Below, in pieces: positions 49,871 to 59,839 of a DNA stretch of 64,000 bases. Position 1 is the stretch's first letter. Each line of letters begins with the position of its first letter. Source of the stretch: an uncultured Acidobacteriota bacterium (lineage in GTDB: Bacteria; Acidobacteriota; Thermoanaerobaculia; Gp7-AA8); contig CAWGHO010000002.1 of NCBI GenBank assembly GCA_963822445.1, forward strand, positions 544,001-608,000, in the 5' to 3' direction. The position numbers were made by a program, and so were the translations under genes. The notes beneath the pieces were generated by a model. It saw only the letters and a program-made list of their open reading frames with translations, had not been told where the DNA came from and ran no database searches.

Positions 49871-49899
49871 TTGGCAATCTGTGCGTGGCCTCTTACGAT
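49871..49899 (+). promoter_or_regulatory. Sigma70-like promoter of the islet ORF
   Basis: TTGGCA-N17-TACGAT, then GGAGG and ATG 49921. Confidence 0.55.
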
Positions 49900-49920
49900 C
49901 GCCTCTCCTACATGGAGGTC

Positions 49921-50601
49921 ATGATGAACGAAGAAGAAGATCTCGAGGTAGATGCCGCCATCGAGGCGGAAATCGACGAGTACCAACGGAAACAACGTCC
50001 GTCGCTCAGACAGAGCCTGCAAGCCGAGTACACGCTGCGAGAGATGCAACGCGTGGTTGTGGAGCTATCGACATGGCGTATCGAGCAGCTGCTTAAAGAC
50101 GCTGATGCCGGCCGCCATCTCCAGCGACTACAAGATGAAGGCTGCGATCGTCAGCACCTGCTCTACCTTTTGGCTATGGTTGAAAAGAATGAGCTCCCCG
50201 AACGGTGGCTTGGTCTCAAGAGTCGTAGCGAGTTGAAGACCGCCATGAAGAAGGTCGCGGACGCGATGCACGTCATCCGAACCGTTCAGCCTAGCATTTG
50301 GCTTTGCCGTACTCTTGCCCGCGACTGGGCTTGGTTTGCGATGTTTCCAATGCTGGAGACACTCCTTCAGAGTTATCTCTCTTTTCTCGCTCTGTTTGGC
50401 GACTCCAAGGAAGCCATACCGGATGTTTCGCGCGAGTTTATCGTCGCTCACGTTGTCAATCGTACTGGAACTGCGTTCGACCATCAGGTAGCGGCGTTAA
50501 TTGCTGCTCTGCCCGGCCATGGCGGCTATTCGACCGAAGCGCATGCTAAGTGGCGCAGCCGAAGCACGTTCTTGAGGTCTGGCGCCTCTTGGCCGACCTA
50601 G
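49921..50601 (+). CDS. Hypothetical protein (islet cargo)
   Basis: Has promoter and RBS, 226 aa, atypical A/T-ending codons; no family recognised. Confidence 0.65.
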   Translation: MMNEEEDLEVDAAIEAEIDEYQRKQRPSLRQSLQAEYTLREMQRVVVELSTWRIEQLLKDADAGRHLQRLQDEGCDRQHLLYLLAMVEKNELPERWLGLKSRSELKTAMKKVADAMHVIRTVQPSIWLCRTLARDWAWFAMFPMLETLLQSYLSFLALFGDSKEAIPDVSREFIVAHVVNRTGTAFDHQVAALIAALPGHGGYSTEAHAKWRSRSTFLRSGASWPT

Positions 50602-51594: not shown

Positions 51595-53641
51595 ATGAAA
51601 CTCACCCGCCTCCTCTCCGCGATCCTCTTCGCGTCCCTTTCGCTGTTCGCCTTCGCCGCCGATGCGCCGTCCGTCGCAAAACGCTACGGCACCTGGGGCG
51701 TCGATCTCGAAGGGATGGACAAGACCGTCAAGCCCGGCGACGACTTCTTCCGCTACGTCAACGGCAAGTGGGCCGCGACGACGCAGATCCCGCCGGACAA
51801 AACGTCATTCGGCGCATTCACCGGGCTGCGCGACATTTCCGAGGAGCGGGTGCGCGTGATTCTCGACCGCTGGGCCGCGGACAAGAATCTGAAGGCCGGC
51901 TCGGACGAGGCCAAGGTCGCGGCGATCTACCGCACCTTCCTGGATGAAGCCGCGGTGGAGAAGCTCGACGCGAAGCCGATCGAGCCGCAGCTCGAAGCGC
52001 TGAAGAAGGCGGAGACCCGCGACGACATCGCGAAACTGATGGCTCGCACGACCTCGAGCTTCGGCCGCGCGCTGTTCAACGCCGGCGTTTCCGACGATTC
52101 CAAGAATCCGGAAAAGTACGCGCTGTATCTGTCGCAGTCCGGGATCGGCCTGGCCGATCGTGAGTTCTATCTGCGCGAGAACTTCAAGCCGCAGAAGGAG
52201 CGCTATCAGAAGTACGTCGCGGACATGCTCCGCCTCGCGGGTTGGGAAGAGCCGGACAAGAACGCGGCGGACATCGTGGCCATGGAAACGGCGATCGCCG
52301 AGGGGATGTGGACGCGGGCCGAGGGACGCAATCGCGACAAGACGTACAACCCGATGACCGTCGCCGATCTCGAGAAGAACGCGCCCGGATTTCCGTGGAC
52401 GGTGTTCTTCAAGGAAGCGGGCATCGACAAAGCCGATCGCGCGGTCGTCAGACAGAACACGGCCTTCCCCAAGCTCGCGAAGATCTACGCCGACACACCC
52501 GTGGCCACGCTGCGGGCCTGGCAGGCGTTCCATGTCATCGACGACGCGGCGCCGCTTCTCTCCAAGCGCTTCGCCGAGGCGAACTGGGAGTTCCGCTCGA
52601 AGTTCCTGCGCGGACAGCAGGAAGAACGACCGCGCTGGAAACGCGCCGTCGAAGCCGCGGAGGGCACGATGGGCGAAGCCATCGGCCGCACGTACGTCGC
52701 CGAGCATTTCCCGCCGGACTCGAAGATGAAGATGGAGAAGCTCGTCGCCGACCTGCGGGCAGCGATGAAGGGACGCATCGAGAAACTGGAGTGGATGGGT
52801 CCGGAGACGAAGGCCCGCGCGCTGGACAAGCTGGCGAAGTTCGGCGTGAAGATCGGCTATCCGACGAAGTGGCGCGACTACTCGAAGCTCGAAGTCCGGG
52901 AAGGCGATCTGGTCGGCAACGCTCAGCGGGCCGCGAAGTTCGAGTGGGACTACGACGTGGCCCGCATCGGCAAGTCCGTCGATGAAGCCGAATGGGGCAT
53001 GACCCCGCAGACAGTCAACGCCTACTACTCGTCGGCGAAGAACGAGATCGTGTTCCCCGCGGCGATTCTGCAGCCGCCGTTCTTCGATCCGAAGGCCGAC
53101 CCGGCCGTGAATTACGGCGCGCATCGGCGCGGTGATCGGCCACGAGATCACGCACGGCTTCGACGACCAGGGCCGCAAGTCCGACGGCACGGGCATGCTG
53201 CGCGACTGGTGGGCGGCGACGGACGCGGCGAAGTTCGAAGCGCAGGCGGCGAAGCTCGGCGCGCAGTACGAAGCCCTCGCGCTGCCGCAGGCGAAGGACC
53301 TCAAGATCATCGGCAAGCAGACCATGGGCGAGAACATCGGCGACCTCGGCGGCATCCTGATGGCCCTCGATGCCTACCGGATCTCGCTGAATGGCAAACC
53401 CGCGCCGGTCCTCGACGGATTCACCGGCGACCAGCGCGTCTTCCTCGGCTGGGCCCAGGTCTGGCGGACGATGATGCGCGACGACGCGCTCCGCCAGTAC
53501 GTCATGACCGACTCCCACTCCCCCGGCATGGTCCGCGCCTTCGCCCCGCTCCGAAACGTCGACGCCTGGTACGAGGCCTTCGAGGTGAAGGAAGGGGACG
53601 CGAATTACGTGAAGCCGGAGGAGCGGGTGAGGATCTGGTAG
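51595..53641 (+). CDS. M13 family metallo-endopeptidase (PepO/neprilysin-like); one +1 frameshift near 53120
   Basis: PGDDFFRYVNG, KIGYP, VNAYY, NEIVFPAAILQPPFF; HEITH and ENIGD in the second frame. Confidence 0.92.
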
Positions 53642-56203: not shown

Positions 56204-58024
56204 ATGACCGCAGAATCAGCGGTTTACGCGTTCGGCCCCTACGTCCTCGATCGCCAGCGGCGCCTGCTGCTGCGCGACGGCGCGGCGGTGGCGCTCACGC
56301 CGAAAGCGTTCGATCTCCTCACGGTGCTCGTCGAGAGCGACGGCCGGCTGGTCGCGAAGGAGACGCTGATGTCCCGGCTCTGGCCGGAGACGGCAGTCGA
56401 GGAGAGCAACCTCACCTTTCAGATCTCGACGCTGCGCAAAGCTCTCGGCGACGGCCGGTACGTCGTCACAATCCCCGGCCGCGGCTATCAGTTCGCGGGG
56501 CCGGTCGCGCTCGTCGGCGAGCCGGAAACGGTCGTCGAACAGGACGAGCGGCAGGCGCGGCCCTGGCTCGCCATCGCCATCGCCGCACTGGCAATCGTCG
56601 CGATCATCGCCATCGCGGCCCTGCTGACGAGGCGGAACCCTGCACCGCCGCCTGCCCCGGGAACGCGATCGATTGCCGTGCTCCCGTTCCGGCCGATCGA
56701 CGCCTCGCATCGCGACGAGGTGCTCGAGCTGGGGATGGCCGACACGCTGATCACGAGGCTGAGCCACATCCCGACGATCGTGATCCGCCCGACGAGCGCC
56801 ATCCGCCGCTACACGGCGCTCGACGCGGATCCGCTGAAGGCTGGCCGCGAGCTCGGCGTGGACAGCGTCGTCGACGGCAGCATTCATCGCAGCGGCGAGC
56901 GGATTCGCATCACTGTCCGTCTGCTTCGAATCGCCGACGGCAAGCCGCTGTGGGCGGCGCAGTTCGACGAAAGCGTGCGAGATCTTTTCGCCGTGCAGGA
57001 TCGTGTGGCCGATGGCGTGGCGCGATCGATCGTCCCGTCGCTGTCCGGCCGCGAACAGCAGTTGCTGGCCAAGCGTCCGACGGGCGATCTCGAGGCCTAC
57101 GATCTGTATCTGAAGGGCCGCTACTCGATGGATCGCATGGACGCCGAGCGCGCCCGCGAATTCTTCGAGCGCGCCATCGAGCGTGATCCCCGATTTGCCG
57201 CGGCATGGGCGGGTGTGGCGGACACGTGGCTGATCCGCGCGAAGTTTTCGGATTCACCTCCCCACGACCAATTCGCCAAAGGTCGCGCCGCCGCGGAAAA
57301 GGCAATCGAGCTCGATCCAGAGCTCGCCGAAGCTCATACGTCGCTTGCGTCGATCTACGGCGACTACGACTGGCGCTGGGATGACGCGGAACGCGAGTAC
57401 CGGCGCGCACTGCAGCTCAATCCGAATTCCGCCATTGCTCACATGTGGTACGCCGTGCTCGCGATGCACCGGCGTAAATTCGACGTCGCGCTCGAGCACA
57501 GCGGACGCGCGGTGGAGCTCGACCCTAGCTCTTCGATGATCGGCGTCGGCCGCGGCCAATGCCTGAACTTCAGCGGACGCAGCGACGAGGCCATCCGCCA
57601 TCTCCAGCAGGTCGTCCGGCAGAATCCCGAAAACCCCGGCGCCATGCTCCACCTCGGCCTGGCCTACATGCAGGCCGGCCGGATCCAGGAGGGTGTCGAG
57701 CAGTTCCGGCACAGCTCCACGCGAACCGGTCACGCGCAGCATCGGGCGCTCTACGCGTATGCCCTGGCGACAGCCGGACAGCGCGATGAGGCTCTGCGCA
57801 TCGCTCGCGACATGGAGCAACTCAGCACTCGCGAGGACATTCCGCCGGTGAACCTGGCCCTGGCCTGGACCGCGCTCGGCGATCACGATCGCGCGTTCCA
57901 CTGGCTCGAGCGCGCATACCGCGACCACCTTTATTTATTGCGCGCGATCAACGTGATGGACGGGTACAAGCCGCTGCACTCGGATCCACGCTACGCAGAC
58001 CTGATTCGGCGCATGGGGCTTTGA
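56204..58024 (+). CDS. Winged-helix (Trans_reg_C) - TM - TolB-like - TPR one-component regulator
   Basis: LTPKAFDLL..EESNLTFQISTLRKALG..TIPGRGYQF; SIAVLPF; EAYDLYLKGR; TPR repeats; DPRYADLIRRMGL. Confidence 0.9.
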   Translation: MTAESAVYAFGPYVLDRQRRLLLRDGAAVALTPKAFDLLTVLVESDGRLVAKETLMSRLWPETAVEESNLTFQISTLRKALGDGRYVVTIPGRGYQFAGPVALVGEPETVVEQDERQARPWLAIAIAALAIVAIIAIAALLTRRNPAPPPAPGTRSIAVLPFRPIDASHRDEVLELGMADTLITRLSHIPTIVIRPTSAIRRYTALDADPLKAGRELGVDSVVDGSIHRSGERIRITVRLLRIADGKPLWAAQFDESVRDLFAVQDRVADGVARSIVPSLSGREQQLLAKRPTGDLEAYDLYLKGRYSMDRMDAERAREFFERAIERDPRFAAAWAGVADTWLIRAKFSDSPPHDQFAKGRAAAEKAIELDPELAEAHTSLASIYGDYDWRWDDAEREYRRALQLNPNSAIAHMWYAVLAMHRRKFDVALEHSGRAVELDPSSSMIGVGRGQCLNFSGRSDEAIRHLQQVVRQNPENPGAMLHLGLAYMQAGRIQEGVEQFRHSSTRTGHAQHRALYAYALATAGQRDEALRIARDMEQLSTREDIPPVNLALAWTALGDHDRAFHWLERAYRDHLYLLRAINVMDGYKPLHSDPRYADLIRRMGL

Positions 58025-58738
58025 TCAAGCGATTGCGCGCTCGGCCGCCTGAAGCTCGAACAAGCTCCTGACCGTCTCCAGTTCTGCCTCGATCGACTCC
58101 ACCGGGACGATGGATTCGATGATCACCGCGCAGCCGGGCGGGACGCGATGCGCAAGACGTCGAAATGCCATCGCCGCCAGGGTCCGAACCGGCAGATGAT
58201 CGCCCAGAGGGCCGACTTCGCTCACGTGAAGCTGCACGAGACGATCGGCGAACTCGGACAGCATGAGCAGAGCCGCGGCCATCGTCGGATCAATCTGCCG
58301 TGCATGGCCGACATCCAGGCAGAACGACGCTTCCGGAAAGCGATCGAGCAAGGTCCGCAACTCGCTGACGGTGCGGCCGGTCATTTTCCGATTGTCCATG
58401 TTCTCGATGCACAGCCGTGATCCGAAGGCCTGCCACTTCGCAGGATTGACGAGGATCTCCGGGTGCACGATGACCGGCCAGGCTTCCGGCAACTGGTTCA
58501 ACGCCGCGATCACCTCGTCCTCGGTCAGCGCGGCCAGGCTGCCCGGCGCATGGAACGAAACGTAGTCGAAGGAATCGAGATCGAGTGTCGAAAGCGCTTC
58601 AACGAGCGGCCGCAACTCAGCGTCGCGCAGGGCCGAGAGTTCGATTGCGGAGACGCCCGGTCTCGCGACCTGAAGCTGCACTCCTCGACGAAAATCGCCT
58701 TTCGCCAAAGCACCGGTCGAGAATCCGATCGGTCGCAT
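58025..58738 (-). CDS. Xylose-isomerase/AP-endonuclease-2-like TIM-barrel metalloenzyme
   Basis: IGFSTGAL, IELSALR, SFHAP, IVHP, IENMD, CLDVGH, LHVSE, DH, IIES. Confidence 0.8.
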   Translation of the reverse strand: MRPIGFSTGALAKGDFRRGVQLQVARPGVSAIELSALRDAELRPLVEALSTLDLDSFDYVSFHAPGSLAALTEDEVIAALNQLPEAWPVIVHPEILVNPAKWQAFGSRLCIENMDNRKMTGRTVSELRTLLDRFPEASFCLDVGHARQIDPTMAAALLMLSEFADRLVQLHVSEVGPLGDHLPVRTLAAMAFRRLAHRVPPGCAVIIESIVPVESIEAELETVRSLFELQAAERAIA

Positions 58739-59790
58739 CAAAAGACTCCGTATTCGCGGATCAACTCCCGCAGTCTCGGATGGGCGTCGAAGAAGAGGGC
58801 GTTCATCCCCTCGCGAAACTCCCGGCTCGTCACGCGGAGGCTGCCGTACGTCGGATCGGTCTCACTCTGCTCGAAAGGCACCTGCTGCAACGCGCCTCGT
58901 GTCTCCGGATCGATCAGCATGCGCAGGAACTCATCGTACGACGAAAAGATCTGCCGCGCGATCGTCGCATCGTTGGTCTCGAGAACGACGCGAGCAAGCA
59001 GATCCAAAGGCGCAACATTGGTCTGCTCGCCGATCAGGTTCGACAGACGAACCAGCCTCTCATGGTCATCCGTCACGCCGTCGAACGCAGGCCCCGCAAA
59101 GAGCTCTCCCGCAAACGACGCGAGCAGTCCCCACGCAAAGAGAAGCTTTCGCGAGAAGCGGAGCTTGATATTGCGAATGGCCCATCCCTCGTGATGGCGC
59201 TCCCACATCTTCGAGGCGTAGTCCGAGGCGACGGTTCTCCAATAGCGAACGACGTCGTTCACGAGAAACAGCGGCAGCGTGTGGGTCTGACCGCGCCGGA
59301 CCGACGGGTCATGGATGACGTATCGCGCGAGCACATTGCCAATCACCCGGTCGCGAATGACGTCGCCGGTGAGCGGGCGGGATTCCGACAGCAGCAGGAT
59401 GCGGCGCGTGAGGTTCTCGTTCGTGTCGCGCGTGCCTGCGATGTAGTGAACGAGCTCGTGACCGGTGACGAGCTGGCCGAAGGTGTCGGTTCTGCCAGGG
59501 GACGCGAATCCAAGTTCGAGGATACGTGCGGCGATCTTTTGCCGGATCGGACCGTGATCCGGATTGGAAAGACCGTCGACGAGCAGAATCCAGTCGACAT
59601 CGCTACTGTCGCTTGCTTCCCCCCGGCCCAGCGAGCCGGTGACGACAATCGAATAGTTCGGGTCTTCGAACTCACGCAATCCGTCACGAAGCCGTATGAG
59701 AAGGCGATCCGTCGTGTCGCGCGCCTCGAAAATCGCCGGCCATCTCTCACCCGTGCGTTCTGCAAGCTGTTCGAGCCACGTCATCGCCAT
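58738..59790 (-). CDS. Pol-beta superfamily nucleotidyltransferase (DUF294/GlnD-like NTase plus helical domain)
   Basis: VTGSLGRGEASDSSDVD signature; DTNENLTRRILLLSES; LVNDVVRYWRTVASDY; WAIRNIKLRFSRKLL. Confidence 0.85.
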   Translation of the reverse strand: MAMTWLEQLAERTGERWPAIFEARDTTDRLLIRLRDGLREFEDPNYSIVVTGSLGRGEASDSSDVDWILLVDGLSNPDHGPIRQKIAARILELGFASPGRTDTFGQLVTGHELVHYIAGTRDTNENLTRRILLLSESRPLTGDVIRDRVIGNVLARYVIHDPSVRRGQTHTLPLFLVNDVVRYWRTVASDYASKMWERHHEGWAIRNIKLRFSRKLLFAWGLLASFAGELFAGPAFDGVTDDHERLVRLSNLIGEQTNVAPLDLLARVVLETNDATIARQIFSSYDEFLRMLIDPETRGALQQVPFEQSETDPTYGSLRVTSREFREGMNALFFDAHPRLRELIREYGVF

Positions 59791-59839
59791 GGGAGTGTGC
59801 CAGAAGAGCGGCGCGACTCCACAAGAGGTAGAGGGGCTC

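Follow-up and report, generated by a model that had tools for sequence, protein, structure and literature searches.

A coupled nucleotidyltransferase and TIM-barrel gene pair in an uncultured Acidobacteriota bacterium: a candidate writer and eraser in phage conflict

The gene pair and its layout

We analyzed a 64,000-nucleotide stretch of the genome of an uncultured Acidobacteriota bacterium (assembly GCA_963822445.1, contig CAWGHO010000002.1, positions 544,001 to 608,000; hereafter the window), in which two overlapping genes, here termed A and B, encode a Pol-beta-superfamily nucleotidyltransferase (NTase) and a TIM-barrel metalloenzyme (Table 1). The pair is a member of the candidate system PDC-M70 of the PADLOC catalogue, with identical gene content: profile PDC-M70A matches A with E 9.5e-111 (residues 4–350, profile positions 6–355 of 355), and PDC-M70B matches the adjoining B with E 1.1e-84 (residues 1–231 of 238). 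The locus is one further copy of this catalogued candidate, and its role as an antiphage system is likewise a candidate one. We tentatively read A as the toxic writer of a nucleotide mark and B as its eraser; new here are the GlnE/DrrA fold of A, the predicted endonuclease-IV-type site of B, the one-sided loss of A, the exchange of partners among distant relatives of A, and a copy of B on a phage contig.

Table 1. Features of the A–B locus (window coordinates)
Feature	Position	Strand	Basis or remark
Gene A, 350-residue Pol-beta-superfamily nucleotidyltransferase (PDC-M70A)	58738..59790	-	Open reading frame, profile matches, model
Gene B, 237-residue TIM-barrel metalloenzyme, endonuclease IV / xylose isomerase family (PDC-M70B)	58025..58738	-	237 residues counted from ATG
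TGATG, overlap of A stop and B start (translational coupling)	58736..58740	-	Sequence; 1 base common to both genes
TGATCA, B stop abutting the stop of a convergent winged-helix/TPR gene, spacer 0	58022..58027		Sequence
49-base gap between A and the upstream same-strand HugZ/CREG-like gene	59791..59839	-	Open reading frame positions

The initial annotation of this DNA recognized no named system that pairs such an NTase with this fold, and it regarded a match to a named system as an argument against its own proposal. The first statement has to be corrected, as PDC-M70 already lists the pair, and the second applies only in part, as the entry is a candidate for which the texts searched describe no mechanism. 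The set of phage defence candidates (PDCs) comprises 145 candidates, whose models come from families of which one or more members sit within BREX, DISARM or type I restriction–modification (RM) loci; they are predictions by embedding, with tests reported in that text for the HEC systems only, and other defence systems occur in their vicinity less frequently than is the case for finds from island enrichment (Payne et al., 10.1101/2024.01.29.577857). The main text of that study, supplementary tables S3–8 aside, mentions neither nucleotidyltransferases nor xylose isomerase nor AP endonuclease. Literature searches found no paper with the term "PDC-M70", and combinations of NTase with TIM barrel or AP endonuclease yielded nothing or unrelated work. 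This search extended neither to the primary paper on Hailong nor to Nicastro et al. 2023, which is reportedly a survey of nucleotide-targeting effector systems and could mention the pair, and both may bear on novelty.

The remaining description of the locus in the initial annotation was confirmed: the two open reading frames (ORFs), the single base shared by the stop codon of A and the start codon of B, the missing spacer before the convergent gene, and the flanking genes, which are unrelated to the pair and were assigned by Pfam as a winged-helix/TPR regulator and a HugZ/CREG-like protein. The preference for A/T-ending codons is real yet mild, as the G+C content at third codon positions (GC3) of A and B is 0.751 each, compared with a genome median of 0.837, at about the 9th percentile of 3,180 genes delivered by a crude gene caller. 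No terminator-like site was found between B and the convergent gene, and no sigma-70-like promoter was found in the 49-base gap upstream of A; because of the latter, read-through into the pair from the upstream gene is possible.

The suggested analysis of co-occurrence revealed a tight coupling of the two genes. We examined 86 loci that had been found by the NTase, namely the best 80 of 461 metagenome matches and 6 genome contigs, with some near-duplicates among them. B follows A (67 whole and 2 frameshifted copies) in every one of the 69 loci whose downstream sequence extends for 750 bases or more; 57 of the 69 have the one-base overlap spacing, and in the others the genes lie within 21 bases. 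The A family is broad, with 545 clusters (50% identity) at E ≤ 1e-30. A 633-residue protein that spans A and B (P0321) was considered as a natural fusion and rejected, as its junction resembles a frameshift run-through of the overlap.

Folds and predicted active sites

The assignment of A as a Pol-beta-type NTase in the initial annotation was borne out. A carries the motif G52-S53-x-x-R56-x-E58...S63-D64-x-D66, for which an alignment of 141 homologs shows no variation at G52, S53, R56, S63 and D66 and 99% conservation of E58 and D64, and Pfam NTP_transf_2 matches A with E 9.2e-5. In the structural model, which has a pLDDT (the predicted score of the local distance difference test) of 96.3, the catalytic domain is followed by a C-terminal helical bundle, an architecture of the GlnE/DrrA type, and there are no regulatory domains. 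The model matches DrrA with Z 14.5 (249 aligned residues, root mean square deviation 4.2) and the two GlnE domains with Z 13.6 and 12.9, after which the next fold match drops to Z 7.6; Foldseek yields the same top four matches. These alignments cover 249–262 residues at 11–13% identity, and the motif of A has the spacing of this type, G52-X11-D64-x-D66. The modelled fold points to the GlnE/DrrA branch rather than to the CBASS or Hailong enzymes. GlnE and DrrA adenylylate proteins reversibly and share the motif G-X11-D-X-D, and SidD, the eraser of the mark set by DrrA, is encoded adjacent to DrrA (PMC12894286). Near the C-terminus of A, position 347 is a tyrosine in 79% and a phenylalanine in 18% of the 141 homologs, and Y285 is invariant. 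Sequence searches of solved structures with the single proteins gave nothing useful, and three predictions of an A–B complex scored 0.00, 0.52 and 0.02 (median 0.02, compared with a mark of 0.32), which we used neither for nor against an interaction.

The TIM-barrel fold that the initial annotation had seen in B and the residues of its apparent metal-ligand set were also confirmed. Across 80 homologs, no substitution occurs at E33, H63, H92, E112, D115, D142, H145, H171 and H181, and E208 is conserved at 99%; together these ten residues constitute the predicted metal site. Pfam has no match for B, but its model (pLDDT 95.7) matches the endonuclease IV / xylose isomerase family of TIM barrels, in which sugar epimerases reach Z 20.1 and endonuclease IV nearly ties with them at Z 18.8. 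The only NCBIfam match is the phosphodiesterase CbiR, with E 6.7e-8 and 32 bits, which is under the cut-off of 105. B resembles endonuclease IV (Nfo) and CbiR in its TIM fold (Z 17–19), but identity is only 15–17%. Six positions, E, D, H, H, H and E, align between residues 109–208 of B and the mycobacterial endonuclease IV 5zhz, in a weak match with E 0.51. H63 and H92 would correspond to the two N-terminal histidine ligands of endonuclease IV, whereas the ligand D229 and the base-flipping residue Y72 of the E. coli enzyme have no counterpart in B. The five invariant histidines H63, H92, H145, H171 and H181, together with E112, D142 and E208, speak for a phosphodiesterase with several metals rather than an epimerase with one metal as the probable nature of B, a call that draws on the weak mycobacterial alignment and on the ligand numbering of endonuclease IV. 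B is a single domain in which no sensor domain was recognized, and it contains one conserved tyrosine, Y59, where a barrel strand begins.

By the features tested, the pair does not belong to Hailong, Clover, CBASS, MNT-HEPN or the GlnD/GlnE nitrogen regulators. Like Hailong (HalA/HalB) and Clover (CloA/CloB), both known in phage defence, it is a two-gene module of a Pol-beta NTase and one partner, but the partners in those systems are an ion channel and a dGTPase that are toxic without the NTase, whereas B outlives the loss of its NTase. Hailong was rejected, as its partner HalA is a transmembrane channel and B is a soluble TIM barrel; Clover was rejected, as B has a TIM fold and no match in Pfam or PADLOC to the HD domain or dGTPase of the Clover partner. 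HalB, the Hailong NTase with tyrosine-primed oligo-dA synthesis, is a weak match of A (E 0.12, Z 5.7). Membership in CBASS was rejected as well: A has no match to a PADLOC cyclase at E ≤ 10, and there is no CD-NTase among its top 50 fold matches. The cyclase of the host genome's own CBASS scores E 8.6e-69 on PADLOC; it adjoins an effector with four transmembrane helices (L255:487-2320; G000:C1, about 500,500–502,300). The type VII toxin–antitoxin system MNT-HEPN was rejected since A has 350 residues compared with about 100–130 and matches MntA only with E 0.067 and 13 bits (cut-off 60); furthermore, the partner is a TIM barrel and not a HEPN RNase. What A–B has in common with MNT-HEPN and MenT/AbiEii is nucleotidylation in a two-gene conflict module, but neither protein has an AbiEii match in Pfam or PADLOC. 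For GlnD/GlnE, 21 bits compare with cut-offs of 519 and 631, and A has no HD or ACT domain, in agreement with the initial annotation, which had seen no GlnD-type regulatory domains.

Distribution, one-sided loss and a phage-borne barrel gene

The pair is patchy and horizontally spread. The names on close homologs point to a member of the Thermoanaerobaculia as the probable host. A scan of the phylum detected full-length A in 6 of 401 genomes and a B match in 9 of 401. B is present in 40 and A in 36 of the 124 genomes of the host family, and in a second family the numbers are 18 and 25 of 201, with distant relatives included in the A counts of both families. In a tree of 42 whole NTases, genera are intermingled, and copies from metagenome-assembled genomes (MAGs) of Myxococcota and Binatota are nested within those of the host family; monophyly of the host genus was rejected (p-AU 3e-113). 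Binning errors in MAGs could account for the cross-phylum rows of the tree, yet not for the mixing within the family. Among 72,556 plasmids, two carry the pair, one amid genes for SIR2, ATPase, ThiF and helicase proteins and the other beside AbiEii; the cultured carriers are Mesorhizobium and Sinorhizobium plasmids. In the host genus, none of 14 loci with the upstream HugZ-like gene has the pair next to it within 1.5-kb flanks, some of which were ended by the contig; a clean empty site was not found, as the downstream neighbours in these loci differ from those of the host locus. The distribution also bears on a purely metabolic or regulatory pair with no conflict role, for example in protein modification resembling nitrogen control or in the processing of nucleotide-sugars or cobamides. 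Such a role would agree with glutamine synthetase adenylyltransferase domains as the closest folds of A, with CbiR as the only NCBIfam match of B and the tie of its fold with sugar epimerases, and with one distant relative in a glycosyltransferase cluster (see below). However, no conserved third gene or pathway context was seen across the loci examined, and the patchy presence, a tree at odds with genus and frequent decay speak against it, so that we consider this explanation very unlikely.

The decay of the pair is one-sided. From the two families we compared the 58 genomes with a close A or B, leaving aside distant relatives of A and one marginal B match, and scored a gene as whole if it spans its profile in one frame. 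Both genes are whole in 36 genomes, B is whole and A is not in 13, neither is whole in 9, and A is whole with a defective B in none; thus, a whole NTase is accompanied by a whole barrel in 36 of 36 cases. Two of the 13 cases are cut off by contig edges, which leaves 11 informative ones: A is completely lost in G442 and G510, reduced to a 17-residue remnant in G040 and to C-terminal remnants in G475 and G599, interrupted in G527 and G534, disrupted by simple frameshifts in G463, G514 and G627, and shortened by an in-frame internal deletion that leaves the coupling to B intact in G515. A length-weighted binomial gives p=0.0034 for 11:0 and p=0.016 for 8:0 without the three simple frameshifts, values that overstate the effect because the genomes are related. 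The 13 unpartnered B proteins retain every one of the ten residues of the predicted metal site. One of them (L057:2-9725, G040:C56) is a neighbour of RadC, and the island in question includes an adenylosuccinate-synthetase-like gene as well.

This one-sidedness suggests that a lone B is tolerated and a lone A seemingly is not. In Hailong, the NTase is described as restraining a toxic partner (review, PMC13434031), in Clover it guards against the toxic dGTPase (PMC12265719), and for MNT-HEPN, too, the available description gives a polarity opposite to the one we propose for A–B. If the pair followed these systems, B would be a toxic effector that A restrains through an inhibitory nucleotide or by adenylylation. 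Such a polarity is the pattern of the characterized NTase guard systems and is compatible with the weak match to HalB and with one distant relative of A beside an HD protein with a weak dGTPase match, as in Clover. We nevertheless give it little credence, as B stays whole, with its metal-site residues complete, in 11 genomes whose A has decayed or disappeared, even by an in-frame deletion, and neither the variable C-terminal position 347 of A, a possible priming tyrosine, nor the single conserved tyrosine of B fits it.

A copy of B was also detected on a phage-like contig. A 193,518-base IMG/VR contig encodes B with 38% identity among genes for a DNA polymerase, a clamp loader, a primase and an exonuclease. 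All ten metal-site residues are retained, and the contig has no A at E ≤ 1. Two scans gave no viral copy of A; a second viral scan for B with other patterns found none, and the phage B as query retrieved itself only.

The proposed association with defence islands was examined with three genes on each side of the pair. This covered 111 proteins at 19 genome loci and, for 20 metagenome loci, 111 of 128 proteins, with three loci left out; one duplicated locus and one NTase remnant were dropped from the count. As control, we took 12 arbitrarily chosen stretches of the host genome with 115 proteins. With all PADLOC matches kept, 29 of 215 neighbours compare with 7 of 115 control proteins (p=0.027), and after removal by hand of generic kinases, cyclases and the like, the slight excess is 15 of 215 compared with 3 of 115 (p=0.074). 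The island link that the initial annotation proposed to check is weak, and this is relevant for the possibility that the same writer and eraser chemistry serves a selfish addiction or stress-dormancy toxin–antitoxin module with no antiphage role. One-sided loss and horizontal spread would fit such a module, as would the weak neighbour enrichment and the majority of copies among ordinary genes. On the other hand, a listing as PDC implies that the family has been found embedded in RM-type defence operons, defence-like clusters surround the two copies on plasmids and several of those on chromosomes, and a phage-borne B exists. We therefore regard a pure addiction module as clearly unlikely.

Exchanged partners and the proposed polarity

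Distant relatives of A, which match the PDC-M70A model with E of about 1e-12 to 1e-54, lack B, and other phospho-hydrolase genes adjoin them instead. A DEDD exonuclease is found in 8 of 9 loci of the second family and also in L045, L260 and L261, and it matches the PADLOC model "Effector, Exonuclease" with E of about 1e-35. Further partners are NT5C, HAD, a histidine phosphatase together with a 2H protein, a histidine phosphatase alone, and HD proteins; the 2H-like partners in L044, L046 and L275 were called by eye from the HxT motif. In L046:9275-12555 (G034:C16), the distant NTase is followed by a 756-residue fusion of an N-terminal 2H-like motif, also seen by eye, with a type II DNA methyltransferase, and in L043:8516-10572 (G003:C8), an HD gene with a weak dGTPase match (E 3.6e-7) lies directly upstream of the NTase in a Clover-like layout. 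Two distant relatives have no phospho-hydrolase in the operon. One is on the E. coli plasmid pISHS7_5 (4,499 bases, Rop; L184:211-1706), whose sole cargo is a PDC-M70A-like NTase (E 5.3e-54) with an upstream 157-residue ORF that has no Pfam or PADLOC match; the other is on a Mycobacterium plasmid, where a HIT gene runs convergent to it. In L201:5067-7814 (G509:C34), a decayed distant relative lies immediately upstream of a whole A–B pair. The common theme of the partners is the hydrolysis of nucleotide phosphate bonds, and the use of an exonuclease as a partner hints at a chain or 3' extension as product of the A family rather than a single protein-bound AMP. There is a likeness to MenT3, a toxic NTase that is rescued by the 3' exoribonuclease RNase PH (PMC7450476), but MenA3, as far as described there, does not erase, whereas A–B would encode its eraser. 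A supposed detoxification of MenT by oligoribonuclease found no support in a word search of PMC11541572 and was dropped.

An exonuclease partner would also suit a CBASS-like mode of action, in which A makes a diffusible (oligo)nucleotide upon infection and thereby switches on a dormant nuclease or phosphodiesterase effector B. The effector model matched by the DEDD partner and the endonuclease IV fold of B are in line with this, and a harmless unpartnered B is predicted equally. However, such a mode leaves unexplained why none of the 36 whole A genes has a broken B and why a phage carries B alone, A has the match profile of neither a PADLOC cyclase nor a CD-NTase, and the single-domain B has no recognized sensor. 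We judge it to be unlikely.

The reading that we tentatively prefer, and whose chance we put at not quite even, is that A is a toxic nucleotidylating writer and B a phosphodiesterase eraser in phage conflict, which reverses the polarity of Hailong, Clover and MNT-HEPN. A would attach, in a Mg-dependent manner, an NMP (nucleoside monophosphate) or a short chain to a cellular target through a phosphodiester bond, the target being a protein hydroxyl, as for GlnE and DrrA, or the 3' end of a nucleic acid. Unopposed, A would inhibit growth; B, as a multi-metal phosphodiesterase, would strip the modification so that the cell survives. A phage infection could upset this balance, with B being lost or inhibited or A being stimulated, and dormancy or abortive infection would follow, and a phage with its own B would be immune. 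The proposed logic resembles the reversible nucleotidylation with a dedicated eraser known for GlnE and DrrA, but A is a stand-alone single NTase unit without a regulatory or guanine nucleotide exchange factor domain, and A–B differs in its patchy mobile distribution and in the TIM barrel as candidate eraser. The initial annotation had proposed a writer with an eraser or effector in an antiphage or toxin–antitoxin role, and co-occurrence, patchiness, horizontal spread and one-sided loss fit this, whereas the link to defence islands does not go beyond a weak one.

Several points weigh against this reading. A is mostly helical, and at Z of about 13 common helical arrangements nearly reach such scores; the barrel of B fits sugar epimerases no worse than endonuclease IV. 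The known NTase defence systems Hailong, Clover and MNT-HEPN run with the opposite polarity. On the Rhizobium plasmid pRspBT04e (L187:4866-6561), a distant NTase and a histidine phosphatase lie in a cluster of glycosyltransferase and major facilitator superfamily genes, which suggests a metabolic use of part of the NTase family. With respect to the one-sided loss, not only are the p values overstated, but two short metagenome contigs (L066 and L120) have a whole A and a frameshifted B and may be assembly errors or real counter-examples; furthermore, the test of B's harmlessness is weakened, except for G515, because a deletion in the upstream A may shut off B through a polar effect. The phage evidence consists of a single contig, classed as a provirus and 61% complete, and 50,697 INPHARED phages gave no copy. 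Finally, defence-island enrichment is weak, the host locus has no defence neighbours, and most copies lie among ordinary genes.

A more far-reaching view, which we consider somewhat unlikely, is that PDC-M70 is the prototype of an undescribed antiphage class, in which a GlnE/DrrA-type NTase toxin is combined, inversely to Hailong and Clover, with an exchangeable phospho-hydrolase as catalytic eraser, and that this eraser was acquired by large phages for counter-defence. The value of the locus lies in its testable polarity. If A were the toxin and B its eraser, the pair would add a defence logic of reversible nucleotidylation opposite to that of the NTase guard systems described in 2025, assign a role as de-nucleotidylase to the endonuclease IV fold, unite a wider NTase family whose hydrolase partners are of five kinds or more, and make a phage gene a candidate for an anti-defence eraser.

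Two other sites in the window, both on the plus strand, deserve mention. A 238-residue ORF at 49885–50601 has no Pfam match over the cut-off, and its codon use is foreign, with a GC3 of 0.626 at the 1st percentile. At 51595–53641, a frameshift seemingly divides a probable metallopeptidase, presumably of the M13 type: from about residue 510 the long ORF no longer makes sense, and the ORF at 53132–53641 bears the HExxH portion.

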